DNA of 64,000 nucleotides, taken from Escherichia virus TH44. Positions 9,168 through 59,311 of this stretch are shown here, piece by piece. The notes under the pieces were generated by a model that had not been told where the DNA came from, made no database searches, and saw only the letters and a program-made list of their open reading frames with translations. The stretch is taken from the sequence record MT446415.1; one strand, given 5' to 3'. The first letter of the stretch is position 1, and every line of letters begins with the position of its first letter. The translations under genes were made by a program, and so were the position numbers.

Positions 9168-9472
9168 TGAAAACTGCATTAGTCTATACCGAAAAGTTAA
9201 ACGGTGACAAGGTCTGGAAACTTCTTATTAAAGGAAGTCCTACTGACCAGTTTATGGCCACCTGTGTGGGATTGTATACTCGTCCTACCAAAAAGATGAT
9301 TCGACAATTTAAACGGTTACATCGCTCGTTCTATGGGGTCTGATATGGATGCTCTTATTACGGTATTTTGGGCCGGAGTTGCTTTATTCGGATTGTTGTT
9401 AGTGCTAAGTTGCACTGCTAAACTATTAGGATATTAATAAATACCCTTATCTAATAATGGTAAGGGTTGATT

Positions 9473-9946
9473 ATGTTGTTGACTGGCAAATTATACAAAG
9501 AAGAAAAACAAAAACTTTATGATGCACAAGCTGGTAAGTGTCCAATTTGCCACCGTGATTTGGACTCCGATGTTCAGGCCAACCATCTTGACCATGACCA
9601 CGAATTGAACGGGCCAAAAGCTGGTAAGGTTCGCGGGTTACTATGCAATCTGTGCAATGGAACAGAAGGACAAATGAAGCATAAGTTCAGCCGTTCGGGT
9701 CTAAAAGGTCGCAATGTTGACTACCTGGAATGGTTAGAGAGTTTGCTTGTCTATCTGAAATCTGATTATACCGAAAATAATATTCACCCTAATTTTGTGG
9801 CAGACAAAGCCAAAGAGTTCGGTCGCCTAGGGAAAGAAGAAATGATTCAGGAAATGCTTTTGAACGGCATGACTTATAATGAATCTGATACGAAGCCTAA
9901 ACTACAAGCTTCATTTAAAAAACAACTGAGGAAATCACTTAAATGA
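9473..9946 (+). CDS. 49: endonuclease VII (Holliday junction resolvase)
   Basis: 157 aa from ATG; 'MLLTGKLYKEEKQK...HLDHDHELNGPKAGKVRGLLCNLCN' matches T4 gp49 as recalled. Confidence 0.9.
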   Translation: MLLTGKLYKEEKQKLYDAQAGKCPICHRDLDSDVQANHLDHDHELNGPKAGKVRGLLCNLCNGTEGQMKHKFSRSGLKGRNVDYLEWLESLLVYLKSDYTENNIHPNFVADKAKEFGRLGKEEMIQEMLLNGMTYNESDTKPKLQASFKKQLRKSLK

Positions 9947-13089: not shown

Positions 13090-13647
13090 ATGAACGAAAT
13101 TAAATTAACCAAGAATAACTATGTAAATAATAAAGAGCTTTTGAAAGCTATTTCGGAGTGGAAACAGAAGCTGAATGCGAACACTGACCCGAACAAAATT
13201 ATTCGCCAGAACGATGTTATTGGTCTGGCGATTATGCTTATAGCCGAAGGTCTTAGCAAACGTTTTAACTTCTCCGGATATACCCAATCCTGGAAGCAAG
13301 AAATGATAGCGGACGGAATTGAGGCCGCAATAAAAGGTCTTCACAACTTCGACGAAACAAAATACGATAATCCACATGCTTACATAACAATGGCTTGCTT
13401 CAATGCTTTCGTTCAGCGTATCAAAAAAGAACGTAAAGAAATGGCAAAGAAATATAGCTACTTCGTCCATAACGTATATGATTCACGTGACGACGATATG
13501 GTGGCTCTGGCTGATGAAACATTTATCCAGGACATCTATGACAAAATGACACAGTACGAATCCTCCTTAGTTAAAGTGCCAGGGTCTGATAAGAGCACCA
13601 AAGATAAAGAGGGTGATTTGGATTTTTTATATGGAACATCAATTTGA
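13090..13647 (+). CDS. 55: late-transcription sigma factor gp55
   Basis: 185 aa; 'YVNNKELL...[39 protein letters not shown]' matches T4 gp55 as recalled. Confidence 0.9.
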
Positions 13648-13865
13648 TATTACCGATTTTTTAGATAAAATCGAGGAAGACTTTACGGCTCTCCCATATT
13701 TCATTAAACTTTATCTGCGAGACATAAAAGGTCTTCCAATTGATATCGACCCTTTAAACGTCCGGAATCTGGAATTTACTTCACCGGATAATAACGTTGA
13801 TTATCGTTATCATGTGGATAATGCTAATCTATATTTTACAATTGAGTTAACTCCCAAGGATTAAT

Positions 13866-14177
13866 ATGCAAGCTCCAGATATTTCTCAACTGACCGATAA
13901 GCAGATTGAAGAAGCACAGGAACGTCTCGAAGAAGCGAACGCACTCGAAGCAACCAGTCAAGCAGCGAAGATTCTGAAAAAGAATGCTCGCGAAATTGCA
14001 CGACTGAATAAGCATGCTCAAGGGGCAGTGCTGGAAAACAATTTTGAAGCATACAAATACGCTTTAGTTAAACTGCGTGGGATTTACCGCCAACCCGTTA
14101 CGGAAGACCTGATTAAGTTGATGTGGGATTCTACTCGCAAACAAATTTGGGAAATCGTAAATGGCATTAGTAAATAA
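13866..14177 (+). CDS. hypothetical helical protein
   Basis: 103 aa ORF. Confidence 0.5.
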   Translation: MQAPDISQLTDKQIEEAQERLEEANALEATSQAAKILKKNAREIARLNKHAQGAVLENNFEAYKYALVKLRGIYRQPVTEDLIKLMWDSTRKQIWEIVNGISK

Positions 14178-14615
14178 ACCCTTTAAACGGCTTCTTATTG
14201 GAGCCGCTTTCAGACTTCGCTCATATGGTAATATCTGTATCAAGCAGACCGAAACCGAATACAAAATGATGGGCCAATATTCTGATGGTATTTTTAAGAT
14301 TGAGCCTGTAGCCAAGGTTTGGGTCGATTCTCATCAACTTAAGAAATGGTGGCAACGATGATAACATGGACAGGTGGCTAATGAAAGACGAACATCCTGA
14401 TTTTTAAAAGCTTATGAATGACGAATATGAAAAAGTTTAAGAGGCTGTATGAATGACGAATTCGACGGATTTTGATAAGATTAAATCTGACAAAAATGAG
14501 ATGATACTTCAATTTGAAGCCGCTCGCATTAAAGCAGAAAATGAAGGTACTATTACCTATAAGCCTATCAAGTTCAGGTCTTCTCATGAACCTCTGTACG
14601 GTGTATTAATTGGAA

Positions 14616-14638
14616 AGGAAGCCTAGCGCTTCCTTTTT
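14616..14638 (+). terminator. hairpin + T-tract terminator
   Basis: ggaagc...gcttcc followed by TTTTTT. Confidence 0.55.
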
Positions 14639-14662
14639 TGCTTTATATTCGAGATGATAAAA
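14638..14662 (+). promoter_or_regulatory. middle-type promoter (MotA box TGCTTTA, 12 bp, TAAAAT)
   Basis: matches T4 middle promoter architecture; motA is in the window. Confidence 0.5.
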
Positions 14663-14823
14663 TGAACCAACTGAGGAGAACATATGGAATTATTTTTAGG
14701 ATATGTCGTGTTATTCATGGCATTCTACACATTCACACGAGCTTGTTGGATAGGATTCTTTTCCACTCCTGACGGGTTCATTTCAATAATTTTATTTTGC
14801 ACTGCGATAACGGCGCTTGGCTT

Positions 14824-15843
14824 ATGAAAATTTTAAATTTAGGTGATTGGCACTTAGGTGTCAAAGCTGACGACCCATGGGCTCAAAACATTCAACGCGA
14901 TGGTATTTTACAGGCGATTGCATATTCCAAAGCGAATGGGATTAAAGTCTGGATTCAATATGGTGATATTTTTGACGTCCGTAAGGCCGTAACGCATAAG
15001 ACGATGGAATTCAGCCGTGAGATTATGGAACTCCTTCGTGAAGCAGGAATTACTATGCACACGATAGTCGGGAACCATGACATGAATCTGAAGAATAAGA
15101 TTCATCCTAATGCTATCACTGAACTCCTGAATAAGTATGACCATGTTAAAATCTACGATAAGCCAACGACTGTTGATTTTGACGGTTGTCAGATTGATAT
15201 GATTCCATGGATGTGTGACGAGAACGCAACTGACATTCACCAACATATCAAAACTTCTGGGGCTGAATATTGCATCGGTCACTGGGAATTAACCGGGTTT
15301 TATTTCTATAAAGGATTGAAATCCCACGGTCTTGAGCCTGATTTCCTTAAGAAGTACAAGCAAGTTTGGTCTGGTCACTTTCACACAATTTCAGAAGCTG
15401 CAAACGTTAAGTACATCGGGACACCATGGACATTAACAGCAGGTGATGAGAACGACCCGCGCGGGTTCTGGGAATTTGATACCGAAACCGAAGAGATGAA
15501 ATTTATTCCGAATGAAACCACCTGGCATCGGAAGATTTTCTATCCAAACGAAACTATTAACTACGACGACTTCAAAGACTTATCAGTCCGTGTTATTGTA
15601 GAAAAAGTCGATAAAGACCTGACCAAGTTCGAATCCGAATTAGAAAAGCGTGTACATGAATTACGTGTTGTCAATAAGGTTGATAACAGTGTTGATACGA
15701 CTGACTCCGAAGAAGAGTTAGATATAAAACGCTTAACTGATATGATGGCAGAATATATCGATGCATTACCTGACGCCAATGAGAAAGAATCAAAAGCTCT
15801 CAAAGCATTGGCCAACAAATTATATCTTGAGGTGCAACCATGA
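14824..15843 (+). CDS. 47: recombination endonuclease subunit gp47 (Mre11/SbcD-like)
   Basis: 339 aa from ATG; 'MKILNLGDWHLG' phosphoesterase motifs. Confidence 0.9.
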   Translation: MKILNLGDWHLGVKADDPWAQNIQRDGILQAIAYSKANGIKVWIQYGDIFDVRKAVTHKTMEFSREIMELLREAGITMHTIVGNHDMNLKNKIHPNAITELLNKYDHVKIYDKPTTVDFDGCQIDMIPWMCDENATDIHQHIKTSGAEYCIGHWELTGFYFYKGLKSHGLEPDFLKKYKQVWSGHFHTISEAANVKYIGTPWTLTAGDENDPRGFWEFDTETEEMKFIPNETTWHRKIFYPNETINYDDFKDLSVRVIVEKVDKDLTKFESELEKRVHELRVVNKVDNSVDTTDSEEELDIKRLTDMMAEYIDALPDANEKESKALKALANKLYLEVQP

Positions 15844-21623: not shown

Positions 21624-24338
21624 ATGCAAGAATTTTATTTAACTATCGAACAAATTGGTGACAATCTGCTCGAACGATACATTGACAAGAACGGTCATGA
21701 ACGTGTTCGTGAAATCCCTTATGCTCCATGCTTGTTTATGCACGCCCGGGAAGGTCAGGCTGCAAAGTATACAGACATCTATAATAAAGGTTGTGTGAAA
21801 AAAGAATTCGATTCCATGCGTGATGCGTCCCAGTGGATGAAGCGAATGAATGACATGGGTCTCGAAGCTATGGGTATGGATGACTTTAAACTCGCATACT
21901 TGTCCGACCGTTACCCGCACGAAATCAAATATGATTCAAGTAAAATCCGTGTTGCTAACTTCGATATCGAGGTGACATCTCCCGATGGGTTCCCTGAACC
22001 GTCTGAAGCACGTCACCCTATTGATGCCCTGACGCACTATGATTCGGTAGACGATAAATTCTATGTCTTTGACCTTTTGGGCTCACCATACGCCACTGTG
22101 GAGCAATGGTCTATTGATATTGCTGCTAAGCTACAGGAAGACGGCGGTGATGAAGTCCCTGAAGAAATCCTGGAAAAAATTGTTTATATGGCTTTCGATT
22201 CAGAAGAAGAAATGCTCCAGCAGTATTTGGTATTCTGGAACGAGAAAACTCCGGTTATGCTAACTGGTTGGAACATCGAGAAGTTTGATATTCCATATAT
22301 CTACAACCGCCTTAAAAATATATTTGGTGAAGCTACAGCAAAACGTCTGAGCCCACATCGTCGTACAAAAGTTAAGGTCATTAACAACGGCTTTGGTGAA
22401 GAACAAGAAATCATTCAGATTCTGGGTATCTCTGTTCTGGATTATCTGGACCTGTATAAAAAGTTCAGCTTCACAAACCAACCGTCTTATTCGTTGGATT
22501 ATGTTGCGGAATCTGAACTTGGTGTTGGTAAACTCCCGTATGATGGCCCGATTTCTAAACTGCGTGAATCAAATCACCAGCGGTATATTTCTTATAACAT
22601 CATCGACGTTTATCGTGTTGTGCAGATTGACCGTAAGCGGCAGTTTATTAACCTGAGCCAGTCAATGGGTTATTATGCAAAAATGCAGATTCAGTCTGTA
22701 TTCAGCCCAATCAAAACTTGGGATGCGATTATCTTTAACAGCCTGAAGACTCAAAACAAAGTCATTCCGGAAACCAAATCGCATGTTCGTCAATCGTTCC
22801 CTGGTGCATTTGTTAAGGAACCGATTCCGAACGCATACAAATATGTAATGAGCTGTGACTTAACATCTCTGTATCCGAGCATTATCCGACAGATTAACAT
22901 CAGTCCAGAAACGATTGCCGGTTCATTTGCACCAGCCCAGATGTATGAATACATCGCAGGAACTGCTGACCGTCCATCTGATACATTTAGTTGTGCTCCA
23001 AATGGTATGATGTATTTTAAAGATGTTGCGGGTATTATTCCGACAGAAGTCACCAAGGTGTTTAATCAGCGTAAAGAACACAAAGGCTATATGCTTGCGG
23101 CTCAACGTAATGGTGAACTGATTAAGGAAGCTCTGCGTAATCCAGGAACGGGTACAACCGAGCCTGAAGTTGATTATCGTTATGACTTTGATGACAATAT
23201 GAAAACGGCCCTGCATGGTCTGAATCAAACAGTCCTGAATGGTATGCTGTACAAAGCGCAGATGGAAGAAGTTGCAGGCATGACCGCACAGATTAACCGT
23301 AAACTGCTTATCAACAGTTGTTATGGCGCTCTGGGCAATATCTGGTTCCGTTACTTTGACCTGCGAAATGCGACCGCGATTACATCTTTCGGACAACTTG
23401 CATTGCAGTGGATTGAGCGTAAAGTTAACGAATACTTCGATAGTGTTTGTGGGACAAGCGGCGAAACTTATGTGTTCTATGGCGATACTGACTCCATTTA
23501 TATCCAGTGCGATAACCTTATTAAAAAGGTTGGTGGTGAATCTAAATTCCGTGATACAAACCACCTGGTTGACTTCATGGACAAGTTTGCGAAAGACCGC
23601 CTGGAACCGGCAATCGATAAAGCTTTCCGTGAGCTGGCTGAATACATGAACAACAAACAGCATCTTATGTTTATGGACCGTGAAGCGATTGCATGTCCTC
23701 CGCTGGGTTCTAAAGGTGTGGGTGGATTCTGGACGGCGAAGAAACGTTATGCGCTGAACGTGTACGATATGGAAGGCACACGTTATGCTGTTCCGAAATT
23801 GAAAATCATGGGTCTGGAAACTCAAAAGTCGAGTACTCCAAAGGCATGTCAGAAAGCTCTGAAAGAATGTATCCGCCGTATGCTGCAAGAAGGTGAAGAA
23901 TCCCTGCAGACATACTTCAAGGAATTCAATAAGGAATTTAATGAGCTTAACTATATGACCATCGCGGGTGTATCATCGGTTAACAACATCCAGAAATATA
24001 ATGAAGGTGGTTTCCCTGGATTTAAGTGCCCGGCTCATATCAAAGGTGTGCTTGCATATATGCGTGCAACTAAAGGTCTGAAGACTGTTCCGCAAATCAT
24101 GGAAGGGGAAAAGGTGTATGTACTTCCTCTTAAAGTCGGCAACCCGTTTGGTGAAACCGTGATTGCATGGCCATCTGGGATTGAACTCCCGATTGAAATC
24201 CGTGACCAGGTTCTGCAGTGGATGGATTACAGTGCTTTGTTCCAGAAGACTTTTGTTAAGCCGTTATCAGGTTTCTCTGAAGCTGCAAAGGTTGATTACG
24301 AAAAGAAAGCAACTCTTTTTGACATGTTCGACTTTTAA
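21624..24338 (+). CDS. 43: DNA polymerase gp43 (family B)
   Basis: 904 aa; exonuclease 'FDIE', polymerase 'YGDTDS' motifs; uninterrupted. Confidence 0.96.
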   Translation: MQEFYLTIEQIGDNLLERYIDKNGHERVREIPYAPCLFMHAREGQAAKYTDIYNKGCVKKEFDSMRDASQWMKRMNDMGLEAMGMDDFKLAYLSDRYPHEIKYDSSKIRVANFDIEVTSPDGFPEPSEARHPIDALTHYDSVDDKFYVFDLLGSPYATVEQWSIDIAAKLQEDGGDEVPEEILEKIVYMAFDSEEEMLQQYLVFWNEKTPVMLTGWNIEKFDIPYIYNRLKNIFGEATAKRLSPHRRTKVKVINNGFGEEQEIIQILGISVLDYLDLYKKFSFTNQPSYSLDYVAESELGVGKLPYDGPISKLRESNHQRYISYNIIDVYRVVQIDRKRQFINLSQSMGYYAKMQIQSVFSPIKTWDAIIFNSLKTQNKVIPETKSHVRQSFPGAFVKEPIPNAYKYVMSCDLTSLYPSIIRQINISPETIAGSFAPAQMYEYIAGTADRPSDTFSCAPNGMMYFKDVAGIIPTEVTKVFNQRKEHKGYMLAAQRNGELIKEALRNPGTGTTEPEVDYRYDFDDNMKTALHGLNQTVLNGMLYKAQMEEVAGMTAQINRKLLINSCYGALGNIWFRYFDLRNATAITSFGQLALQWIERKVNEYFDSVCGTSGETYVFYGDTDSIYIQCDNLIKKVGGESKFRDTNHLVDFMDKFAKDRLEPAIDKAFRELAEYMNNKQHLMFMDREAIACPPLGSKGVGGFWTAKKRYALNVYDMEGTRYAVPKLKIMGLETQKSSTPKACQKALKECIRRMLQEGEESLQTYFKEFNKEFNELNYMTIAGVSSVNNIQKYNEGGFPGFKCPAHIKGVLAYMRATKGLKTVPQIMEGEKVYVLPLKVGNPFGETVIAWPSGIELPIEIRDQVLQWMDYSALFQKTFVKPLSGFSEAAKVDYEKKATLFDMFDF

Positions 24339-24407
24339 GTGTTTACAACGGCAATGGATTGCCGTATTATTACCTCATCAACTGATGAATAACTTAAGGA
24401 TATTAAA

Positions 24408-24650
24408 ATGGAAACATTAATTGCGGGTACTGTTGTTCTTGGTGCAGGTTCTTTCTTCCTGGCTGCACTGGCATATTTTCTGCCGTGGATTATCGCGCTG
24501 CTGCGTGGTACCAAAAGTAATTGTGGAATCTTCTTTGTTAACCTCCTGATAGGTTGGACAATGGTCGGATGGTTTATTGCATTTATCTGGGCACTCGTTG
24601 CTGAACGTAAATCAAACGCACAAGTAATTATCATCAAGGAAGCAAAATGA
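24408..24650 (+). CDS. small membrane protein (position of T4 imm)
   Basis: 80 aa, two transmembrane helices; homology to Imm not established. Confidence 0.5.
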   Translation: METLIAGTVVLGAGSFFLAALAYFLPWIIALLRGTKSNCGIFFVNLLIGWTMVGWFIAFIWALVAERKSNAQVIIIKEAK

Positions 24651-24798
24651 AGATAATTACAATTATTGTACTGATTGCATTTTTTAGTATGTCAATCTAT
24701 TGGGCAATAATGACTCCACATATGATTCCAACTTTAATTTTGGGTTGGGTATTTTTGGGGCTCCAAGCCCGCTATGAATGTTTTAATTAGGAAGCAAA

Positions 24799-25302
24799 AT
24801 GAAAAAGTTAGCTATCGCAGCTGTTATGCTGCTATCTGGTTGTGCTTACCAGGGTGATGTTGTTAATGCCAACGAGATTGGTAAAGCGCGAATTGCTGCA
24901 GACCGTCAGGTGCATAATGGTTCCTTTGATTTCAAAGGTGGTACTGGACTTATCTACAAACGCGACAACAATCAATGTGGAAACAACTGCGCGAAATATG
25001 CTCAACAAGAAATTGAGTACAAACGCGAGCAAGCTGCGAAGCATGACGAAATCATTGCCAAGCTGGAAGCAGAAACCAAGCGACAAAATGACCTGGATAC
25101 TGTTAACCAGATTTCACAGGTCTGCATGTCATATATCAATATGCAGATAAACATCATGCGCGCAGAAGCTTATCAGGCAGCGGAGACGGGTTCTCCAAAA
25201 GCTAATGAGTACCGCGATATGTATCAGCGTTCTGCTCAAAACCGTCTGAGCTATATTAATAAATGTGTAGCTAAAGAGAAAGCACGCCAAGGTATTAACT
25301 GA
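24799..25302 (+). CDS. putative lipoprotein
   Basis: 167 aa; signal peptide with lipobox 'LLSGC'. Confidence 0.55.
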   Translation: MKKLAIAAVMLLSGCAYQGDVVNANEIGKARIAADRQVHNGSFDFKGGTGLIYKRDNNQCGNNCAKYAQQEIEYKREQAAKHDEIIAKLEAETKRQNDLDTVNQISQVCMSYINMQINIMRAEAYQAAETGSPKANEYRDMYQRSAQNRLSYINKCVAKEKARQGIN

Positions 25303-25566
25303 TGTTATTATTACTTCTGATTGTTGTAACAGTAATTGGTTTGTTGCTATTAGAAAAGCGTAATAAGCATTTGGCTGAAGAAAACTGGAAACGTGGTAAC
25401 GTTTACTAAATTACTCTGAACTGCGAGAAAAATATTATGATTGGTGCGCTATTGATTAGTCTGTGGCTGTTGTCTGCATTTGGTATTGGTTTTATGTACT
25501 GGTGGGACAAACGTCAGACCCGGAAGATTGTTGAACGTGCAATTAATCGTGGTTTCAATCGTTAAT

Positions 25567-25591
25567 TGCTCTAAAAATACAGTGATATAAT
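25567..25591 (+). promoter_or_regulatory. middle-type promoter upstream of uvsX
   Basis: TGCTCTA box, 12-bp spacer, TATAAT. Confidence 0.4.
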
Positions 25592-25644
25592 TATCCTATC
25601 TTAAACCTGTGAGAAAAATATAATGGTGCCTATGGAAAAAATGA

Positions 25645-26823
25645 ATGTCTATTGCAGATTTGAAATCCCGTTTGATTAAAGCTTCTACATCCAAAATGAC
25701 CGCGACTCTTACCAAGTCCAAGTTTTTTAATGATAAAGATGTAGTTCGTACAAAAATCCCGATGCTGAACATTGCAATCAGCGGTGCACTAGATGGTGGT
25801 ATGCAGTCAGGTTTGACTATTTTTGCTGGTCCGTCAAAACACTTTAAATCCAATATGGGTTTAACGATGGTCTCTGCATATATGAACAAATACCCCGATG
25901 CAATCTGTTTGTTCTATGATTCAGAATTTGGTATCACAGAAGCATATCTTCGTGCAATGAAAGTTGACCCGGAACGTGTTATCCATACACCAATCCAGTC
26001 GGTTGAACAATTGAAAGTTGATATGGTTAACCAGCTTGAAGCAATTGAGCGTGGTGAAAAAGTCATTATCTTTATTGACTCAATCGGTAACATGGCGTCG
26101 AAAAAAGAAACAGAAGATGCGATGAACGAAAAAGTCGTTGGCGATATGACCCGTGCTAAATCCTTGAAATCTCTATTCCGTATTGTTACTCCGTATTTTA
26201 GTATCAAGGATATTCCTTGTGTCGCGGTTAACCATACAATCGAGACGATTGAGATGTACAGCAAAACCGTTATGACTGGTGGTACTGGTGTTATGTATTC
26301 TGCTGATACCGTATTCATTATCGGTAAACGCCAGATTAAAGAAACCGGTAAAGAACTTGAAGGTTTCCAATTTGTTCTGAACGCCGAAAAATCTCGTATG
26401 GTCAAAGAGAAAAGTAAATTCTTCATTGATGTAAAATTCGATGGTGGGATTGACCCGTATTCTGGCCTGCTTGATATGGCAATGGAAATCGGATTTGTGG
26501 TGAAACCGAAAGTTGGTTGGTATAACCGTGAATATCTTGATGTTGAGACCGGTGAAATGGTCCGCGAAGAAAAATCATGGCGTGCAAAAGATACCAACTG
26601 TACTGAATTCTGGGGCCCGTTGTTCAAGCACGAACCTTTCCGTGACGCAATCAAACGTCATTACCAGCTGGGTGCAATCGATAGCAATGCTGTTGTTGAT
26701 GCCGAAGTTGATGCGCTTATTGCCTCCAAGGTTGAAAAATACTCCGCTCCTGAAGGTAAGACAAAACCGTCCGCGGCAGATATCGAAAACGATTTAGATA
26801 TGATGGAAGACCTTGATGAATGA
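25645..26823 (+). CDS. uvsX: RecA-like recombinase UvsX
   Basis: 392 aa; matches T4 UvsX as recalled (DLKSRLIKASTSK...GPSKHFKSN). Confidence 0.95.
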   Translation: MSIADLKSRLIKASTSKMTATLTKSKFFNDKDVVRTKIPMLNIAISGALDGGMQSGLTIFAGPSKHFKSNMGLTMVSAYMNKYPDAICLFYDSEFGITEAYLRAMKVDPERVIHTPIQSVEQLKVDMVNQLEAIERGEKVIIFIDSIGNMASKKETEDAMNEKVVGDMTRAKSLKSLFRIVTPYFSIKDIPCVAVNHTIETIEMYSKTVMTGGTGVMYSADTVFIIGKRQIKETGKELEGFQFVLNAEKSRMVKEKSKFFIDVKFDGGIDPYSGLLDMAMEIGFVVKPKVGWYNREYLDVETGEMVREEKSWRAKDTNCTEFWGPLFKHEPFRDAIKRHYQLGAIDSNAVVDAEVDALIASKVEKYSAPEGKTKPSAADIENDLDMMEDLDE

Positions 26824-27157
26824 TATCGATTTATCTGATTTAGATAATTTCGAGAAAGATGCGGAGGGAGCTAAGGCTCCTTCTGTACCTTACTACGAAA
26901 AAAGTTTGGAGATTATCCGGCAATCCATGGGAACCGTACGACAGGAAATTCTGTTATCACTCCCTGATGGGTCCAGTCACATTGTGTACGTAACCGGAAT
27001 TAAAATTGAACCATCTGGAAAAGTTTCAGTTGATTTCGGCACCCCTTCTGAAGACCGCAAAGCGGAGCTTGCAGTGCATGTAGAAAAGTGTGTTACAATG
27101 CAAATACAAGATGAAATTGATAAGATTAAAATGAAAAAGAGGTGGTGGAAGTGGTAG
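26813..27157 (+). CDS. hypothetical protein (position of T4 gene 40)
   Basis: 114 aa between uvsX and 41. Confidence 0.5.
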   Translation: MMNDIDLSDLDNFEKDAEGAKAPSVPYYEKSLEIIRQSMGTVRQEILLSLPDGSSHIVYVTGIKIEPSGKVSVDFGTPSEDRKAELAVHVEKCVTMQIQDEIDKIKMKKRWWKW

Positions 27158-28581
27158 AAACTATTTTATCCCAGCTACTCTTTAACAAGGAATATTTTGT
27201 TAAAGTCTGGCCATATCTGAATAACACATATTTTGAAAAGGGTCCTGCAAAGACCCTTTTTAATACGATTAACGAACACGTAAAAGAATATCAAGCGGTA
27301 CCAACTAAGACTGCACTTGATATCGCGCTCGACAGTTCTGACCTTTCTGAAGTCGAATATGAAGGCACAAAGAAACTCTTAGGAGTCCTGGCCGATACTC
27401 CAGAAGACCAGGAATGGTTGGTTAAAGAAACCGAGAAGTATGTGCAGAAGTCTGCGATGTTCAATGCCACATCCAGGATTATCGAAATCCAGAGTAATGC
27501 CGAACTTCCGAAAGACAAACGTGATAAACGAATCCCGGATATTGGCGCTATCCCCGACATCATGCGCGATGCATTGTCTATCTGTTTTGACTCTGCTCTG
27601 GGTCATGACTGGTTAAACGATTACGAAGCTCGATTCCAGACTTATCTGAACAAATCGAAGAAGGTTCCGTTCCGTATTAACATCCTGAATAAAATCACAA
27701 AGGGTGGGGTTGAGTACGGTACAGAGAACGTTTTACTGGCCGGGACAAACGTCGGGAAATCCCTTGGACTTTGTTCGTTAGCGGCTGACTATCTTCAGAC
27801 TGGCCATAATGTGCTTTATATAAGCATGGAAATGGCAGAAGAAGTATGTGCCAAGCGTATTGACGCCAACTTGCTGGATGTATCTCTGGATGATATTGAT
27901 GAAGGTCATATATCGTGGGCAGAATACAAAGCTAAGATGGAAAAATGGCGTGCAGCAGGGACTCTTGGGACTCTGAAGATAAAACAATATCCAACTGGCG
28001 GTGCTCATGCGGATACCTTTCGTGCATTGCTGAATGAATACAAACTGAAGCAAGGGTTTGTGCCGGATGTGATTATTGTTGACTACCTAGCAATCTGTGC
28101 AAGCTCAAGACTGAAAACGTTTACCGAAAACAGTTACGGTCTGATTAAGATGGTTGCAGAAGAACTTCGTGGTCTGGCGGTCGAGAAAAATGTGGTCCTG
28201 TGGACTGCAGCACAGACAACCAGGGGTGCGAACGTTGCAGCTGAGATTGATATGGCTGACATCGCAGAATCATTTGGTATTGCTCACACGGCCGACTTTA
28301 TGTTGGGTGTTGTTGAGACCGAAGAATTCGCTCAAATGGGACTACAGTTAATCAAACAGCTTAAGTCTCGTTATGGCGATAAGAACTACTATAATAAATT
28401 CAAGATGGGTGTTAAGAAAGGTAATCAGCGCTGGTATGAGGTTGATGATGATTCAGCTCCTAAACAAGGCCCTACGGTTAAAGAAGCCACTGGTGAGATG
28501 AATCGCCAGGCTGAAATGAATAGACAAACCAGGGTCAACAGGAGCGACCTGGACGACCTTGCTGCTCAAATGAAATTCTAA
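27142..28581 (+). CDS. 41: replicative DNA helicase gp41 (DnaB-like)
   Basis: 479 aa; Walker A 'GTNVGKSLG', RecA-like core. Confidence 0.94.
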   Translation: MVEVVETILSQLLFNKEYFVKVWPYLNNTYFEKGPAKTLFNTINEHVKEYQAVPTKTALDIALDSSDLSEVEYEGTKKLLGVLADTPEDQEWLVKETEKYVQKSAMFNATSRIIEIQSNAELPKDKRDKRIPDIGAIPDIMRDALSICFDSALGHDWLNDYEARFQTYLNKSKKVPFRINILNKITKGGVEYGTENVLLAGTNVGKSLGLCSLAADYLQTGHNVLYISMEMAEEVCAKRIDANLLDVSLDDIDEGHISWAEYKAKMEKWRAAGTLGTLKIKQYPTGGAHADTFRALLNEYKLKQGFVPDVIIVDYLAICASSRLKTFTENSYGLIKMVAEELRGLAVEKNVVLWTAAQTTRGANVAAEIDMADIAESFGIAHTADFMLGVVETEEFAQMGLQLIKQLKSRYGDKNYYNKFKMGVKKGNQRWYEVDDDSAPKQGPTVKEATGEMNRQAEMNRQTRVNRSDLDDLAAQMKF

Positions 28582-32008: not shown

Positions 32009-33037
32009 ATGTCATATATTGATAGAGAATTTGCAGTCAGAGCTTTATCGTATCAACCACGTTATAGAGAAGTCACCGGGAGCACATTTAAAGCAAACTG
32101 TCGTTGCAAGGTTTGTGGGGACTCCCAGAAAGATTCACACAAGGCTCGATTCTGGGCGTATACTAATCCGGCTGATGGCGCGGTTTACGTGAAATGTTTT
32201 AACTGTGACTACTCCACGCATATAAGCAAATACATAAAAGAGTTTGAGCCGGATTTACACCGGGAATATATGGTCGAGAAGTATAAGGAGAATGCCTTTG
32301 GGCGGCAACGTACTGAAGTTACAGAAGCTCCGAAAGAACCAGAAAAAACTCCGGTTATTGAGCAGCTTGCTTTTTGTGAAAGACTCGATACTTTACCAGA
32401 AGCACATCCGATAGTTAAGTATGTAAAAAGTCGATGTATTCCGAGCAATGTTTGGAACCGACTATGGTTTACAAACCAATGGCCTGCATTAGTTAACTCC
32501 GTTAATCCTGGGACGTATAAGAATGAAACGAATGAACCACGCTTGGTTATTCCTATCTTCAACGGCAAAAAAGAAATCGAATCTTTCCAAGGACGAGCTC
32601 TTCGCAAAGATGCACCACAAAAATATATCACAATCAAAGCTCACCCAGAAGCTTCCAAAGTCTATGGCGTAGACAAGATTGATGAGCGTAAACGCGTATG
32701 GGTAATGGAAGGTCCGATTGATAGTTTGTTTATCCCTAACAGCATTGCGATAACCGGTGGAACATTAGCATTAGAAGCTGTTCCTTATCCAGAAACCAGA
32801 GTATGGGTGATGGACAACGAGCCAAGACATCCGGATACGATTAAACGTATGAAGAAGCTCGTTGAAGCTGGCGAAGCTGTTATGTTCTGGGACAATGCAC
32901 CATGGCATACGAAAGACATAAATGAGATGGTTAAATCAGAAGGGGCAACCCCTGAACAAATCGAATCATATATGGCCGATAACGTTGCTCAAGGATTGAT
33001 GGCGAGAATGCGACTTTCGAAGTACGCAAAAGTTTAG
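32009..33037 (+). CDS. 61: DNA primase gp61
   Basis: 342 aa; N-terminal zinc ribbon 'CRCKVCGDS...CFNC'. Confidence 0.92.
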   Translation: MSYIDREFAVRALSYQPRYREVTGSTFKANCRCKVCGDSQKDSHKARFWAYTNPADGAVYVKCFNCDYSTHISKYIKEFEPDLHREYMVEKYKENAFGRQRTEVTEAPKEPEKTPVIEQLAFCERLDTLPEAHPIVKYVKSRCIPSNVWNRLWFTNQWPALVNSVNPGTYKNETNEPRLVIPIFNGKKEIESFQGRALRKDAPQKYITIKAHPEASKVYGVDKIDERKRVWVMEGPIDSLFIPNSIAITGGTLALEAVPYPETRVWVMDNEPRHPDTIKRMKKLVEAGEAVMFWDNAPWHTKDINEMVKSEGATPEQIESYMADNVAQGLMARMRLSKYAKV

Positions 33038-33234
33038 GAAGGGATTCCGGTAAAGTAACCGATGATGGAATGGATATGTTCCATTGTGACCTGAGGTAAG
33101 TGTACCCCTTGTGTTGCAGCGATAGGCACAACCAGTAAGTTCCACAGGAAAACATCAAGAGCTAAAAAGCCCATGATGAGCTTCTTGTCTTTCTTACTGG
33201 TTAATTTCCAAATCTGATAGAATAATGTTCCCAT
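33034..33234 (-). CDS. small membrane protein, paralog A
   Basis: 66 aa; basic N-terminus then TM 'FLWNLLVVPIAATQG'; opposite strand to all neighbours. Confidence 0.45.
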   Translation of the reverse strand: MGTLFYQIWKLTSKKDKKLIMGFLALDVFLWNLLVVPIAATQGVHLPQVTMEHIHSIIGYFTGIPS

Positions 33235-33242
33235 AGTTCCAC

Positions 33243-33440
33243 CTATACAAGGCCGATTAATGCCAGTGAAACATCTACAACTGATTCGAGCGCGACGACT
33301 GGCAATATAATACCATGTGTCAATGCGACAGGGGCAACAATGAAGTTCCAGAGTAGAACTGAACAGAGTACCGAAAGGACCAGAATCGTTCGCTTACGAC
33401 TGCCTTTGATGGCTTGAATTAGACTAGATAGTTTTAGCAT
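33243..33440 (-). CDS. small membrane protein, paralog B
   Basis: 65 aa from ATG with AAAGGAGGA SD; TM 'LLWNFIVAPVALTHG'; 9 nt upstream of paralog A. Confidence 0.45.
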   Translation of the reverse strand: MLKLSSLIQAIKGSRKRTILVLSVLCSVLLWNFIVAPVALTHGIILPVVALESVVDVSLALIGLV

Positions 33441-33524
33441 ACATCCTCCTTTCTTGTATTTATGCTTCAAACCAATACGATATAATTAACATACAAACAA
33501 CATGAATTGATAAGGAAAAATATA

Positions 33525-34043
33525 ATGGCTCATTTTAACGAGTGTTCTCAACTGATTGCTGGTGTTGATAAAGCTCAAGGCGCTTATGATAATGCAATTT
33601 TTGAAGGCACTGACCCACTGCAAGTTATGCTTGATATGCAGAAATCATTGCAGGTTCGTCTGGCTAAAGAAAAACCAGAATATAACGAACATCCTGATAA
33701 CCTGGCGACTGCTGGTGAAGTTGTTACCTGGCTCCGCAACCAGAAAGATTATATTGATGATGAATTCCGTGAACTGATTACTGCATTAGGTGGCATGTCC
33801 AATGGCGAGAAAGCTGCCTCGGCCGTATGGAAACCGTGGAAAGCACAACATGGCGAAATGCAGCAAACCCTGATTAATGATTTATCTCCTGAAGACCAGC
33901 TCGAAATTAAATTCGAAATGATTGATATTCTCCATTTCGTTCTGAACATGTTCCATGGCCTTGGACTGACTGCAGAAGAAATCTTTAAACTGTATTACCT
34001 GAAAAACGCTGAGAACTTTGCTCGTCAAGACCGAGGCTATTAA
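33525..34043 (+). CDS. 56: dCTP/dUTP pyrophosphatase gp56 (MazG-like)
   Basis: 172 aa from ATG; matches T4 gp56 as recalled (MAHFNEC...DPLQVMLDMQ...EIFKLYYLKN.ENFARQDRGY). Confidence 0.88.
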   Translation: MAHFNECSQLIAGVDKAQGAYDNAIFEGTDPLQVMLDMQKSLQVRLAKEKPEYNEHPDNLATAGEVVTWLRNQKDYIDDEFRELITALGGMSNGEKAASAVWKPWKAQHGEMQQTLINDLSPEDQLEIKFEMIDILHFVLNMFHGLGLTAEEIFKLYYLKNAENFARQDRGY

Positions 34044-34086
34044 TACTAATAAATAAGTCATGTAATTAATAAAAATGGAGAATTGC

Positions 34087-34320
34087 ATGGCTTATGTTAA
34101 TATCAAAACAGCTACCCGTGATGTCACCGGTGGTACTGTCGAAGGCAAAGAAATTTCCATTGATTTTACTCTGTATTCAGATGTCCATAAAATTGCGGGC
34201 TCTCACTACCAGACTTTCCCTTCTAAAGATGCAGCATATTCTACCGTTTTTGAAAAGGCTGACAGGGAGGCATGGATTGCAGCAAACGAAGACATTTTTA
34301 AAGTAACCCCGGCGGCATGA
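34087..34320 (+). CDS. soc: small outer capsid protein Soc
   Basis: 77 aa; 'YVNIKT...EGKEIS..F.LYSDVHKI.G.HYQTFPS..AAYSTV...WIAANED' matches T4 Soc as recalled. Confidence 0.85.
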   Translation: MAYVNIKTATRDVTGGTVEGKEISIDFTLYSDVHKIAGSHYQTFPSKDAAYSTVFEKADREAWIAANEDIFKVTPAA

Positions 34321-34333
34321 TAGATTAATTATA

Positions 34334-36830: not shown

Positions 36831-37445
36831 ATGCTGTACACTGATGACGTTTTGAATGGAATTATTGATATTGCTGCTACTAGCGAGTCTTTTCGTAACC
36901 AATGTCAAGCGGAGATTGATGCTCTTTACACAGATAATGAGCAATCAGTACTCTGGCAGTGTATGGAAAATAAACCTGACCTGATTCAAGAAGACTTAAC
37001 CAGGATTATCCGCAACAATCTGAATACTGCACCGCCAGCGGCATTGTTCCGTGGTATATCAAAGAAAACTATGGAATACCTGGAAGATTTCAGATATGTT
37101 GGGGCGACAATTGAGTTCAATCGTGTGATGAGTTTTTCCAGGGACTGGCAGGTTGCAAGAAATTTCGCATCATATAGTTTCTATGGCACAAGGAATATTT
37201 TCTGCATAAACAATGCACCATATGCGTATAACTATCAGGAAGCAATCTTCAAAATGATTTGTGGTGCTCCTCCTGAAGAGTTCAATGGTGCATATCCAGA
37301 AGCAACCAGGAAATCAAACTTACACCTGGTTAATGATGAGGATGAGTTTATGTTTCCCGCTGGGACTACGCTCCGCGTAGACTTGATTGAAACTCACCCA
37401 TTGAATAACCTGTATACTGTTTGGCATTTGACTGTTTTGAACTAA
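36831..37445 (+). CDS. modA: Mod-type ADP-ribosyltransferase (R-S-E class)
   Basis: 205 aa from leader-supported ATG; 'LFRG', 'MSFSRD', 'DEDEFMFP'. Confidence 0.6.
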   Translation: MLYTDDVLNGIIDIAATSESFRNQCQAEIDALYTDNEQSVLWQCMENKPDLIQEDLTRIIRNNLNTAPPAALFRGISKKTMEYLEDFRYVGATIEFNRVMSFSRDWQVARNFASYSFYGTRNIFCINNAPYAYNYQEAIFKMICGAPPEEFNGAYPEATRKSNLHLVNDEDEFMFPAGTTLRVDLIETHPLNNLYTVWHLTVLN

Positions 37446-37504
37446 CCAAAGACCTTAGAACCATTATACACAGTAAAAATAAAAGCGTTAAAGGCAAAAA
37501 GTAG

Positions 37505-37532
37505 TGTACACACCCAATGGATGGTGTATAAT
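37505..37532 (+). promoter_or_regulatory. early-type promoter with class-A leader
   Basis: TGTACA-16-TATAAT; -10 flanked by ATGGAT/ATCCAT. Confidence 0.55.
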
Positions 37533-37579
37533 GAATCCATACTGAGTTACCAAATCGTCCGTAAGATGAGAAAAATATC

Positions 37580-38326
37580 ATGACTTTATCAAAAACCAAA
37601 ACGCTGAAAGTTAAACGTCGTCTGGAACACACTCAAGCTTCCGCTAAACGTCGCGGTAAAGACTTTAACCTGGATTTTGATTATCTGGTTAACATTCTTG
37701 ACCAAAAAGTTTGTGCTTATTCTGGTGAGACATTTAATAACTCTATTGAAGGTGAGAAGTTATCATTAGAGCGTTTTAACAATGATATTGGTTATATCAA
37801 AGGTAATGTTATTCCTGTTAAAAAGAAATACAATACCATGCGTTCTGATTGGTCCCTAGATGAGCTTAAACAACGTCGCGATGATGTTGCTGTAAAAATT
37901 GCTCGCCCGTCCGTCAAGAAGATTGAAAAGTTAAATCTGACTGCAGAGAAATGGGAACAGATTAAAAAGTCATATACCCATATTAAGAACATCCAGCACA
38001 AACGTGATAATCGCGTTAAGCATTATGCTCAAATGAGCAAATCAGAGCAGTCCAAAGAAAACCAATTAAAAATGGTTGCTCTGAAGGCTCGCATTGATGG
38101 TTCCCGTGTTGCGGAAGGTCATGAGCTTACTAAATTGAATGTCCTGCTCAAAGGTAATGACTGGAAGGTTACCAAGAAATTAACTAATGCTGAAACGCTT
38201 TTTGATTGCTATGATAAAATCATTCAAGGTCTTGAGCGTTTTGAGAAGATTGGTTTTATTGGTAAATTAAAACTGAAACGTGGTCTGCCTTTGAACGCGT
38301 CAATTTTTAAACTGATTAGAGGTTAA
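37580..38326 (+). CDS. hypothetical basic protein (position of T4 srd)
   Basis: 248 aa; lysine-rich. Confidence 0.5.
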   Translation: MTLSKTKTLKVKRRLEHTQASAKRRGKDFNLDFDYLVNILDQKVCAYSGETFNNSIEGEKLSLERFNNDIGYIKGNVIPVKKKYNTMRSDWSLDELKQRRDDVAVKIARPSVKKIEKLNLTAEKWEQIKKSYTHIKNIQHKRDNRVKHYAQMSKSEQSKENQLKMVALKARIDGSRVAEGHELTKLNVLLKGNDWKVTKKLTNAETLFDCYDKIIQGLERFEKIGFIGKLKLKRGLPLNASIFKLIRG

Positions 38327-38327
38327 T

Positions 38328-38627
38328 GTGATGTACTATGCATATGTGCTAGTCCACAAAGATAAAGATGGTTTTGAACGCCCATTGGAGTATAATGGAA
38401 AGGTTACCTTATACACCACAAAAGCGGGCGCAGAATATGAACTTGCCAACTATTCATATACTACAAACCGCTATTTACGCATGGGACGTATTGAAACACG
38501 GTATATTCCCAGAAAATGGTGGTTTGATAAGCGGGAATCAAAAACTGTTTTTCCTACTGAAGAACACGCCCGAGAATTGAAACAGGTTTTATATACTTTA
38601 TATGTTAAGCGAGTAAAATTGGCATGA
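38328..38627 (+). CDS. hypothetical protein (dda.1 position)
   Basis: 99 aa ORF. Confidence 0.5.
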   Translation: MMYYAYVLVHKDKDGFERPLEYNGKVTLYTTKAGAEYELANYSYTTNRYLRMGRIETRYIPRKWWFDKRESKTVFPTEEHARELKQVLYTLYVKRVKLA

Positions 38628-39952
38628 TTAAATTTGAAGACTTGAACACAGGACAAAAAGAAGCTTTTGATTATATCACTGAAGCTATTCAACGACGTTC
38701 AGGGGAATGTATCACTCTGAATGGTCCAGCTGGTACAGGTAAAACTACTCTGACAAAATTTGTCATTGACCATCTGGTGCGTAATGGAGTTATGGGAATT
38801 GTGCTTGCTGCACCAACTCACCAGGCAAAAAAGGTTCTATCTAAATTGTCTGGTCAAACGGCGAATACAATCCATAGTATCTTGAAGATTAACCCGACCA
38901 CATATGAAGACCAAAACGTTTTTGAACAGCGCGAAATGCCTGATATGTCAAAATGTAATGTTCTGGTTTGTGATGAAGCAAGTATGTATGACGGGGCTCT
39001 GTTTAAGATTATTCTTAACTCTGTTCCTGAATGGTGTACTATTCTTGGGATTGGTGATATGCACCAGCTGCAGCCAGTTGACCCAGGAAGCACACAACAA
39101 AAAATAAGCCCATTCTTTACGCATCCTAAGTTCAAACAGATTCATCTGACTGAGGTCATGCGAAGCAATGCTCCTATCATTGAAGTGGCGACAGAAATTC
39201 GTAATGGTGGCTGGTTCCGTGACTGTATGTATGATGGTCATGGCGTACAAGGTTTTACCTCACAAACCGCTTTAAAGGATTTCATGATAAACTATTTCGG
39301 TATTGTAAAAGATGCTGATATGTTGATGGAAAACCGGATGTATGCGTACACGAATAAATCAGTTGAAAAACTGAACAATATTATTCGTCGTAAGCTCTAT
39401 GAAACGGATAAAGCATTTTTACCGTATGAAGTCCTGGTTATGCAAGAGCCACACATGAAAGAGCTGGAATTTGAAGGTAAGAAATTCAGCGAAACCATTT
39501 TTAATAATGGTCAGTTGGTTCGCATCAAGGATTGCAAATACACTTCCACAATTCTCCGTTGTAAAGGTGAATCGCACCAGTTAGTGATTAATTACTGGGA
39601 CCTGGAAGTTGAGTCAATTGATGAAGATGAAGAATATCAGGTTGACCGCATTAAAGTTTTACCAGAAGACCAGCAACCAAAATTCCAGGCATATCTGGCT
39701 AAAGTTGCTGACACATACAAACAGATGAAAGCCGCTGGTAAACGTCCAGAGTGGAAAGACTTCTGGAAAGCTCGCCGGACCTTCTTGAAAGTTCGTGCTC
39801 TTCCGGTCAGTACAATCCACAAGGCCCAAGGCGTTTCAGTGGACAAAGCATTTATCTATACTCCATGCATCCATATGGCTGAAGCTTCATTAGCGAGCCA
39901 GTTGGCTTATGTTGGAATCACACGAGCGAGGTACGACGCATATTATGTATAA
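38624..39952 (+). CDS. dda: Dda DNA helicase (SF1B)
   Basis: 442 aa; 'NGPAGTGKTTLTKF', 'AAPTH.AKK.LSKLSG', 'YVG.TR.RYD' match T4 Dda as recalled. Confidence 0.93.
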   Translation: MIKFEDLNTGQKEAFDYITEAIQRRSGECITLNGPAGTGKTTLTKFVIDHLVRNGVMGIVLAAPTHQAKKVLSKLSGQTANTIHSILKINPTTYEDQNVFEQREMPDMSKCNVLVCDEASMYDGALFKIILNSVPEWCTILGIGDMHQLQPVDPGSTQQKISPFFTHPKFKQIHLTEVMRSNAPIIEVATEIRNGGWFRDCMYDGHGVQGFTSQTALKDFMINYFGIVKDADMLMENRMYAYTNKSVEKLNNIIRRKLYETDKAFLPYEVLVMQEPHMKELEFEGKKFSETIFNNGQLVRIKDCKYTSTILRCKGESHQLVINYWDLEVESIDEDEEYQVDRIKVLPEDQQPKFQAYLAKVADTYKQMKAAGKRPEWKDFWKARRTFLKVRALPVSTIHKAQGVSVDKAFIYTPCIHMAEASLASQLAYVGITRARYDAYYV

Positions 39953-49742: not shown

Positions 49743-50063
49743 ATGATTAACTATATGAACGTTGGCGATGAATCTATTAACGAAATTCGATTGCATGGTA
49801 ATCATGTTGCGGATATTGTTTATTGTGTTGATTGTCATTATGCTTCTACAAAGTCAACTGGCCGGTTATATGCGAGAGACATCATTCTTGCAACGAAAGA
49901 AGAACTTCGTAGTCTGGACCATTCTACTCTAGCCGAAAGTGTCAGAATTTATTATGGCGTCGTTCATGTAGACAAAGTTTATATTGGCAGTGATTATCAA
50001 GAGCAAGCTGAGCAAAATTCTTTGGATACTGTCGAAAAATCCGATATGTATTTTAAAGGATGA
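49743..50063 (+). CDS. hypothetical protein
   Basis: 106 aa ORF. Confidence 0.45.
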   Translation: MINYMNVGDESINEIRLHGNHVADIVYCVDCHYASTKSTGRLYARDIILATKEELRSLDHSTLAESVRIYYGVVHVDKVYIGSDYQEQAEQNSLDTVEKSDMYFKG

Positions 50064-50067
50064 GCTG

Positions 50068-50661
50068 ATGATTCAGAAGAGTAAAACATGGGAGCATCTG
50101 AAAAAGATGCCCTCCTTCCTTTATACAAAGGAAGACTTAACCCCCGAATCCCTGCAAAAGATTGTAGACACTGCCAGGTATTCATTGCGTAAAGACCCAG
50201 GTCAGGACCGTGAGCAAGTCATGCAAAGATGTATGGTAGCCACAATGGCTGAACAAGCTATTGCTAAATGGACCTCCGGTTTTTTATGTGGCGGTGATGA
50301 AGATTACGATAATCCTTACTCCTTTGCATTTGATGTAGTTTCGAAGGAAGGGGTAAGAATCGAAGTCAAGACTCATCAGTCTGGTTCCAAATGGATATCC
50401 GTACATACTGGCCACCAGGGCGATTATCCACATGGTTACGGGGTTAATCTTGGTCCCTTTATGCAGCACAAGCTTGCTGACCTTATGATTATGTTTAATG
50501 TAAAAGAGACTCTCAAAGGTTATAGATTTAAACCAAAATTCCTTGCTGGGCCTGGTGCTTTCGTTCCTGAGTCTGGTCTTGTGCAGAAGTCACAAGGGGA
50601 TGGTTGGTACCTCCGTTCTTGTTCAGAAGAAAAATTTCCCTATCACCGGTTTACAAGCTGA
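50068..50661 (+). CDS. putative PD-(D/E)xK-like nuclease (position of T4 denB)
   Basis: 197 aa; 'FAFDVVSKEGVRIEVKT' gives D...E-x-K spacing. Confidence 0.45.
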   Translation: MIQKSKTWEHLKKMPSFLYTKEDLTPESLQKIVDTARYSLRKDPGQDREQVMQRCMVATMAEQAIAKWTSGFLCGGDEDYDNPYSFAFDVVSKEGVRIEVKTHQSGSKWISVHTGHQGDYPHGYGVNLGPFMQHKLADLMIMFNVKETLKGYRFKPKFLAGPGAFVPESGLVQKSQGDGWYLRSCSEEKFPYHRFTS

Positions 50662-55243: not shown

Positions 55244-55292
55244 GATTCCATACTGAGTTACACAATGAATCACAAAAACTTTGGAGAATAAA

Positions 55293-58486: not shown

Positions 58487-58497
58487 GCGCTTATGTA

Positions 58498-59280: not shown

Positions 59281-59292
59281 ATAAACCTCCAA

Positions 59293-59306: not shown

Positions 59307-59311
59307 TCTTA

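Follow-up and report, generated by a model that had tools for sequence, protein, structure and literature searches.

The genomes of Gaprivervirus (Straboviridae, Tevenvirinae; the VR7/SP18 group), the genus to which Escherichia virus TH44 belongs, have no gene 42, no glucosyltransferase genes, and no RB69-type hydroxycytosine/arabinose cluster, and we propose that the place of gp42, which hydroxymethylates deoxycytidine monophosphate (dCMP) in T4, is filled by td, the thymidylate synthase gene. That Td, with Asp in place of a substrate-contacting Asn, is the substitute for gp42 appears highly likely from its sequence. The narrower proposal, that this Td(Asp) makes 5-methyl-dCMP and that 5-methylcytosine (5mC) thereby replaces cytosine in the phage DNA, seems moderately probable on the same grounds, our confidence in a 5-methyl product being lower because the Asp alone does not fix the chemistry. 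The analysis started from 64,000 nucleotides of TH44 (MT446415.1; hereafter the window), in which a first-pass annotation had seen neither gene 42 nor a β-glucosyltransferase gene between gene 43 and uvsX. That gene 42 is missing has been published before. We found no paper that gives the Asp reading or its correlation across lineages; publications on 5mC in Tevenvirinae, on dCMP methyltransferase, and on Gaprivervirus modification included none that names the Gaprivervirus base or remarks on the Asp in td.

The 43-to-uvsX stretch of the window is 96 to 97% identical to those of Escherichia phages 212 and RZ and 94% identical to that of vB_EcoM_VR7 (VR7), all three of which are Gaprivervirus. 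Relative to VR7, the window is inverted but otherwise collinear, running from ~50,181 to 1 and then from 169,285 to ~154,700, with a DNA identity of ~92%. As the window makes up ~37% of a roughly 170-kb genome, the complete VR7 genome was used as a stand-in for the parts beyond it, and phage 212, the closest complete genome, was compared in the 43-to-uvsX and td regions.

The interval in question is bordered on the left by the gene 43 DNA polymerase (21624 to 24338; a 904-amino-acid [aa] open reading frame [ORF] with Pfam domains DNA_pol_B_exo1 and DNA_pol_B, called gene 43 in the VR7 and EAWsc9 annotations) and on the right by the uvsX recombinase gene (25645 to 26823; Pfam T4_UVSX_C and RecA, annotated in VR7 and EAWsc9); these two genes lie on the plus strand, as do the first three described below. 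It measures 1.3 kb, compared with ~3.6 kb in T4, where it holds segA, b-gt, 42, imm, and imm.1, and ~5.4 kb in JS98. The first-pass annotation had listed an 80-aa membrane protein, a 167-aa lipoprotein, and tiny ORFs as its only contents. The lipoprotein and the tiny ORFs stand as described, and the membrane protein, which had gone unrecognized, is the superinfection immunity protein Imm itself (24408 to 24650; Pfam PF14373, E = 5e-17; phrog_1039), 52% identical to T4 Imm (E = 2e-23). It is followed by a conserved small ORF of 47 aa (24647 to 24790; phrog_3610, E = 8e-27; “42.1” in VR7; RB69 orf054c-like), which is 56% identical to JS98 orf44, and by the predicted lipoprotein (24799 to 25302; signal peptide and lipobox LSGC; phrog_1754; homolog VR7ORF049c). 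The latter is 52% identical to JS98 orf43 (E = 1e-43), is called “lipoprotein” in the EAWsc9 annotation, and matched no Pfam family; it is not a nucleotide metabolism enzyme. The slot that remains (25303 to 25580) is empty except for two tiny hydrophobic ORFs (25302 to 25409, 35 aa; 25437 to 25565, 42 aa). Such ORFs are variably present in the genus: positions 25301 to 25418 are missing from VR7, and the gap lengths differ among VR7, EAWsc9, and the window. Across the genus, the 43-to-uvsX stretch measures 4.9 to 5.2 kb in all 30 Gaprivervirus records listed, a size into which an undetected gene 42 would not fit.

Searches for modification genes elsewhere were likewise negative. With T4 proteins as tblastn queries, gp42 had no match better than E = 0.43 in the window or E = 2.2 across the complete VR7 genome, and neither α- nor β-glucosyltransferase gave a match below E = 2 in either sequence. 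The same search with T4 Dam returned only E values above 4 in the window and the whole VR7 genome, so the genus apparently lacks the adenine methylase as well; the position that dam occupies in T4 corresponds to 33038 to 33524 here, between gene 61 (32009 to 33037) and gene 56 (33525 to 34043). The 55-to-47 interval (13613 to 14827, plus strand), which had been reported to lack α-gt, was found by tblastn and from the ORF list to contain only homologs of a-gt.5, a-gt.4, a-gt.3, a-gt.2, and 47.1, with no α-glucosyltransferase gene and no mobB, a layout identical to those of VR7 and JS98. The earlier suggestion that the modification genes might sit outside the window is thus not borne out in VR7, where the whole-genome search recovered no gp42, α-gt, β-gt, or gene of the RB69/JS98-type cluster. 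Two published surveys also describe the genus as having no hydroxymethylcytosine (hmC) synthase.

The RB69-type cluster deserves separate mention. In JS98, of the sister genus Dhakavirus, this 4.4-kb cluster of five genes (orf42 to orf38) lies between the lipoprotein gene and uvsX, and its ThyA-like gene encodes a 5-hydroxy-dCMP synthase according to a 2026 paper. Homology between the window and JS98 ends inside the lipoprotein gene and restarts just upstream of uvsX, indicating that the whole block is cleanly absent. No match at E ≤ 0.01 was obtained by tblastn in the window or VR7 with JS98 orf39 (the ThyA-like 5-hydroxy-dCMP synthase; RB69 gp48) or with orf38, orf40, orf41, and orf42 (glycosyltransferase and sugar-nucleotide genes), and the empty slot holds no remnant of the cluster apart from a weak 35-aa match between the 42-aa ORF and the JS98 spacer upstream of uvsX. 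Other kinds of modifying enzymes were sought by comparing the 10 larger non-T4 ORFs of VR7 with Pfam; no methyltransferase, glycosyltransferase, or ThyX family was among the matches, which were limited to DUF7275/DUF7277, a T5orf172/MUG113 domain, and an endonuclease VII domain.

The genus nevertheless encodes proteins that presuppose modified cytosine. The gp56 homolog reported by the first-pass annotation is indeed a dCTPase/dUTPase homolog (33525 to 34043, plus strand; Pfam dUTPase_2 and PRA-PH; phrog_173), with 68% identity to T4 gp56 over 172 aa (tblastn, E = 8e-77), and we infer from this similarity that it destroys deoxycytidine triphosphate (dCTP) and feeds dCMP to a modifying enzyme. 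A denB (endonuclease IV) homolog (50068 to 50661, plus strand) matches phrog_1360, “DenB-like DNA endonuclease IV” (E = 3e-80), over residues 29 to 224 of the ORF at 49984 to 50661, and its DNA is 95% identical to the denB region of VR7. The host-takeover set in the window also includes ndd, encoding the nucleoid disruption protein (52697 to 53146, plus strand; Pfam PF06591, E = 1e-68). Beyond the window, VR7 encodes Alc (Pfam PF17527, E = 2e-51), together with DenA, Cd, the gp1 deoxynucleoside monophosphate (dNMP) kinase, Frd, and td. Beside alc, a 77-aa VR7 ORF (137010 to 137243, minus strand) matches the Alc Pfam model only over the model's N-terminal third (E = 3e-9); it may represent a gene fragment or an incomplete duplication. 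In T4, DenB is a nuclease specific for cytosine DNA, and Alc, DenB, and gp56 are tolerated only because the cytosines of the phage itself are modified.

This combination has been noticed before. Nikulin and Zimin (2021) pointed out that Gaprivervirus, Acinetobacter phages ZZ1 and 133, and Morganella phage MP1 have no known synthase and keep Alc and DenB, and they proposed that an unknown protein is behind the modification. In two surveys, the Gaprivervirus gene set is considered to preclude replication with ordinary cytosine, the base itself and the suitability of these phages for therapy being left unsettled. Restriction analysis in a BREX study describes VR7 DNA as having “modified cytosines” that are not glycosylated (PMC6326788). 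These restriction data, with the retention of DenB, Alc, DenA, and the dCTPase, contradict unmodified DNA, one of the options that the first-pass annotation had left standing, and favor another of them, a different modification, for which the td ortholog provides a candidate enzyme.

The td gene lies in an frd-td-nrdA operon ~11 kb beyond the 3′ end of the window, with frd directly upstream and overlapping it. It is the sole ThyA-family gene in VR7, and ThyA queries from four other phages match only td; a second thymidylate synthase of the ThyX type was also sought, and no ThyX signature (RHR-x7-S) was present in ORFs of at least 120 aa in VR7 and the window. VR7 Td is ~70% identical to the crystallized T4 Td (1TIS). 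It reads YQRSVDVFLGLPFDIGSY (PFDIGSY) where T4 Td has PFNIASY, that is, Asp for Asn at the position corresponding to Asn177 in Escherichia coli ThyA and Asn229 in the Lactobacillus casei enzyme. In canonical thymidylate synthase, Asn177 hydrogen-bonds O4 and N3-H of deoxyuridine monophosphate (dUMP). The rest of the active site is kept in VR7 Td (Cys146, His147, Arg166, Ser167, Asp169, His207, Tyr209, Glu58, Tyr94, and Arg21), as is the thymidylate synthase-type C terminus. The same replacement made in the laboratory (Asn177Asp in E. coli, N229D in L. casei) changes the substrate of thymidylate synthase to dCMP, with 5-methyl-dCMP as the product, and ThyA homologs with Asp177 are enriched on viral metagenomic contigs with modified cytosine (PMC8670742).

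The Asp is a property of the genus. It occurs in six of six Gaprivervirus Td sequences sampled, namely, those of VR7, phage 212, and four protein clusters (85 to 98% identity to VR7 Td; one of them contains 73 sequences), whereas Asn is found in all 116 of the other best-scoring T-even Td clusters, including named Tequatrovirus phages and Dhakavirus Bp7. Clade-specific changes are also seen at positions 148/149 beside the catalytic Cys (Leu-Leu replacing Met-Phe) and at 179 and 182. When td of VR7 is compared with that of phage 212, the ratio of nonsynonymous to synonymous substitution rates (dN/dS) is 0.035, and the Asp codon is GAC in one and GAT in the other; this synonymous difference and the low ratio indicate that the Asp is being maintained. 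In the phage 212 record (PQ765507.1, 59846 to 70706), the product names are displaced by one gene and cannot be trusted: the td coding sequence is labeled “dihydrofolate reductase,” and the nrdA coding sequence is labeled “thymidylate synthase.”

In a search of 1.84 billion proteins clustered at 50% identity, the 150 nearest cluster representatives had Asn in 137 cases, Asp in 7, and Ser in 1; 5 could not be parsed. Asp177 is also found in td of Acinetobacter phages 133 and ZZ1 and Morganella phage MP1, the other three lineages of the puzzle posed by Nikulin and Zimin, whereas RB49 and 44RR2.8t, T4-like phages that have no gp42, have Asn177 in Td. According to published surveys, the RB49 group has neither Alc nor DenB, and its DNA is canonical. 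Within this sample, therefore, the phages with Asp177 are precisely those that require a substitute for gp42.

If Td(Asp) acts as its sequence suggests, the route to modified DNA could be as follows. gp56 would hydrolyze dCTP and dCDP to dCMP, which Td(Asp), with methylene-tetrahydrofolate, would convert to 5-methyl-dCMP, Frd recycling the dihydrofolate. The gp1 kinase and host nucleoside diphosphate kinase would then raise 5-methyl-dCMP to 5-methyl-dCTP for incorporation by gp43, giving DNA with 5mC instead of cytosine and free of sugar. Such DNA would be spared by Alc, DenB, and DenA, with which the phage attacks cytosine DNA; Alc is reported to be blocked by CpG methylation (Kashlev 1993, cited in PMC8056088). 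Thymidine monophosphate (dTMP) might be supplied by Cd through deamination of 5-methyl-dCMP, by the host ThyA, or by thymidine kinase salvage. Sugar-free 5mC DNA would fit both the missing transferases and the published VR7 data. For this phage, we infer the substrate, the methyl product, and the dTMP route.

Several considerations weigh against this proposal. The td gene lies outside the window, and its presence in TH44, like its Asp, is extrapolated from relatives that are 92 to 97% identical in DNA. Asp177 indicates a preference for dCMP and not the nature of the product: it is present in T4 gp42, which adds a hydroxymethyl group, and in the RB69-type 5-hydroxy-dCMP synthase. The engineered Asn177Asp enzymes are slow. 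A phage with no dUMP-specific thymidylate synthase of its own would be unusual. McrBC and Mrr would be expected to attack DNA containing 5mC, but VR7 is able to grow on BL21; no function that counters restriction has been identified. The figure legend for VR7 in the BREX study, moreover, says only “modified cytosines” (PMC6326788).

A different product of the same enzyme is the first alternative to consider. Td(Asp) might turn dCMP into unglucosylated 5-hydroxymethyl-dCMP, 5-hydroxy-dCMP, or another C5 derivative, as the Asp is shared with T4 gp42 and the JS98/RB69-type synthase, as ThyA homologs are known to yield several different products (PMC13326640), and as the Gaprivervirus enzymes have their own changes at 148/149, 179, and 182. 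We nonetheless consider this unlikely, given the ~70% identity to authentic T4 Td with its retained C terminus, an operon with dihydrofolate reductase that would suit reductive methylation, and the 5-methyl-dCMP made by the E. coli and L. casei enzymes after the same change. A further point against it is that in the BREX study DNA of T4147 probed likewise, with T4 β-glucosyltransferase, is called “hydroxymethylated” and VR7 DNA only “modified” (PMC6326788). We regard it as rather improbable that some enzyme yet to be recognized, encoded by an orphan ORF or partnering the phrog_9997 protein (see below), performs the modification and that the Asp in Td is incidental or serves another purpose. 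Many small Gaprivervirus ORFs have no annotation, and the phyletic pattern of phrog_9997 matches that of Asp177 ThyA, but the phrog_9997 protein is mostly helical in its AlphaFold model and has no catalytic motif, metal site, or enzyme fold, and the larger non-T4 ORFs have no methyltransferase, glycosyltransferase, or ThyX domain. Destruction of dCTP by gp56 would, in addition, require a route at the nucleotide level, and the known routes of this kind for pyrimidines use ThyA homologs. In addition, purifying selection maintains the Asp, and it is found repeatedly, in four T4-like lineages, two myovirus genera with 52-kb genomes, and Erwinia phage RF1, in each case in the only ThyA homolog.

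Ordinary cytosine DNA, with Alc, DenB, and gp56 altered in specificity or timing, has a precedent in RB49 and RB43, which keep DenA and a dCTPase/dUTPase homolog and have canonical DNA (PMC8056088), and gp56 is also a dUTPase. It is very improbable in Gaprivervirus, where the restriction analysis reports modified VR7 cytosines (PMC6326788), where Alc and DenB, missing from the T4-like phages with cytosine DNA, are both present, and where an Asp177 thymidylate synthase would leave the phage with no useful enzyme. The window covers little more than a third of the genome, so that gene 42 and the glucosyltransferase genes could in principle lie outside it; this is extremely unlikely, as the complete, collinear VR7 genome has no homolog by either tblastn or annotation and two genus-wide surveys agree on the absence.

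A family of small proteins, phrog_9997, shows much the same distribution as Asp177 ThyA. Its VR7 member, VR7ORF147c (141 aa; VR7 65136 to 65561, minus strand), lies outside the window. Among 50,697 phage records, homologs occur in all Gaprivervirus and otherwise nearly always in MP1, ZZ1, Henu6, and 133, in Erwinia phage RF1, and in Rosemountvirus and Loughboroughvirus myoviruses; the tally also includes one Listeria and one Klebsiella record. In each phrog_9997 lineage checked (RF1, Salmonella phage BP63, ZCSE2, MP1, 133, and ZZ1), the sole ThyA homolog has Asp177. As the VR7 record calls VR7ORF147c similar to cytidine/dCMP deaminase, we considered it as the missing enzyme and rejected it. 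It matches no Pfam family and no PDB sequence and has neither a His/Cys-x-Glu nor a PCxxC zinc motif; its AlphaFold model (predicted local distance difference test score, 84.7) consists of three short strands and six helices; and Foldseek searches of the PDB and BFVD return only its own family, which comprises 19 clusters among 5.8 billion proteins. With low confidence, we suggest that phrog_9997 is an accessory to the modification, for example, one that protects the DNA from methyl-dependent restriction; arn is not annotated in VR7, including the stretch between asiA and arn.1.

The window itself contains a relative of this protein. A 75-aa ORF (55281 to 55508, plus strand), equivalent to VR7ORF277c, matches phrog_17275 (E = 1e-52) and secondarily phrog_9997, with VR7ORF277c as its fold match in BFVD. 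It lies just upstream of motA (55511 to 56119) and is a paralog of the C-terminal three-helix domain of VR7ORF147c (39% identity over 59 aa; tblastn, E = 3e-8). In two Gaprivervirus genomes, the VR7ORF147c homolog gives a match in two parts that extend over ~930 bp instead of 423 bp (RZ, MW598459.1, 76734 to 77671; TH40, MT446411.1, 112753 to 113678), which suggests an insertion of ~0.5 kb, perhaps a mobile element or an intron.

The ThyA homologs of Rosemountvirus and Loughboroughvirus also have Asp177, and DNA of Loughboroughvirus S144 is reported to be cut only by AT-specific enzymes and to be “modified on the cytosine,” no gene having been found to account for this. In BP63 (37219 to 38696) and ZCSE2 (25709 to 27186), the gene for the Asp177 ThyA, in which His147 is also replaced by Tyr, adjoins that for a MazG-like nucleotide pyrophosphohydrolase. 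Genomes of these two genera also encode a dNMP/thymidylate kinase, and BP63 has an annotated dCMP deaminase; together, this set is the functional equivalent of gp56, gp1, and Cd. We tentatively extend the proposal to all of these lineages, as a speculation: in Gaprivervirus, 133, ZZ1, and MP1, and in Rosemountvirus, Loughboroughvirus, and RF1 (the last three being myoviruses of 45 to 53 kb), cytosine might be replaced by 5mC or another unglycosylated C5-modified cytosine through an Asn177-to-Asp ThyA. In the T4-like phages, td itself would have been converted, so that a synthase specific for dUMP would be missing and dTMP would be obtained by deaminating the methylated nucleotide, and phrog_9997 would be a dedicated accessory, for instance one that inhibits restriction dependent on methylcytosine.

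DNA similarity to VR7 is lacking at 58496 to 62380 (the gene 37 region, minus strand) and at 63370 to 64000. Gene 37, encoding the distal long tail fiber (59312 to 62614), has no such similarity across most of its length, which probably reflects a different receptor specificity. Next to gene 56, 281 bp (34044 to 34324) with an 81-aa ORF (34075 to 34320) have no VR7 homology, and the homing endonuclease gene segF, which VR7 carries beside gene 56, is thus absent from the window. Near the counterpart of 9467 to 9946 (VR7 39.2 to 40.0 kb), the VR7 annotation passes from 55.8 to gene 49, with nrdG, nrdD, and mobC not annotated, and an anaerobic ribonucleotide reductase is not annotated anywhere in VR7.

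The reading of td by one residue is a hypothesis that could be tested cheaply for four T4-like lineages at once, and it would also account for the unsolved cytosine modification of Loughboroughvirus S144. If it is true, a phage can exchange its DNA modification through a single substitution in a housekeeping enzyme, and the annotation “thymidylate synthase” should be corrected in more than 100 deposited genomes. A fully 5mC-substituted coliphage would be a useful tool and substrate for the study of methyl-dependent restriction, BREX, and Alc, and predictions of restriction sensitivity and of transduction risk for therapeutic phages would be affected.

Compared with known systems, Gaprivervirus shares with the glucosyl-hmC system of T4 its genome architecture and gp56, dNMP kinase, dCMP deaminase, Frd, Alc, DenA, DenB, and Ndd, of which gp56, denB, and ndd lie within the window. 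It is not a member of that system, because gp42 and the glucosyltransferases are absent; the 43-to-uvsX and 55-to-47 slots are empty, and the DNA is free of sugar. The arabinosyl-5-hydroxycytosine system of RB69 and JS98 (Mosigvirus and Dhakavirus) likewise starts from a ThyA-family enzyme acting on dCMP. However, the place taken by its cluster, between the lipoprotein gene and uvsX, is vacant in the window, and the window and VR7 lack all five of its genes; as the cluster is absent and the DNA is not glycosylated, Gaprivervirus does not belong to this system either.

The laboratory Asn-to-Asp mutants of thymidylate synthase carry the same change in an otherwise identical active site, on a scaffold that is 48% identical between Td and E. 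coli ThyA. Unlike these mutants, Gaprivervirus Td is a natural enzyme under purifying selection, and it may be tuned by the additional clade-specific changes at 179 and 182 and next to the catalytic Cys. In Xanthomonas phage XP12, all cytosine is replaced by 5mC through a ThyA-family dCMP methyltransferase, and dTMP possibly arises by deamination of the methylated cytosine nucleotide. XP12 is an unrelated phage of a different host, and in Gaprivervirus the proposed enzyme is the T4 td ortholog, switched by one residue and set in a T4-type replication and host-shutoff chassis. The two would nevertheless share methylation of dCMP at the nucleotide level by a thymidylate synthase homolog and DNA that is modified and not glycosylated. 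By this likeness, which we draw from descriptions of XP12, the system proposed for Gaprivervirus seems to work most like that of XP12.

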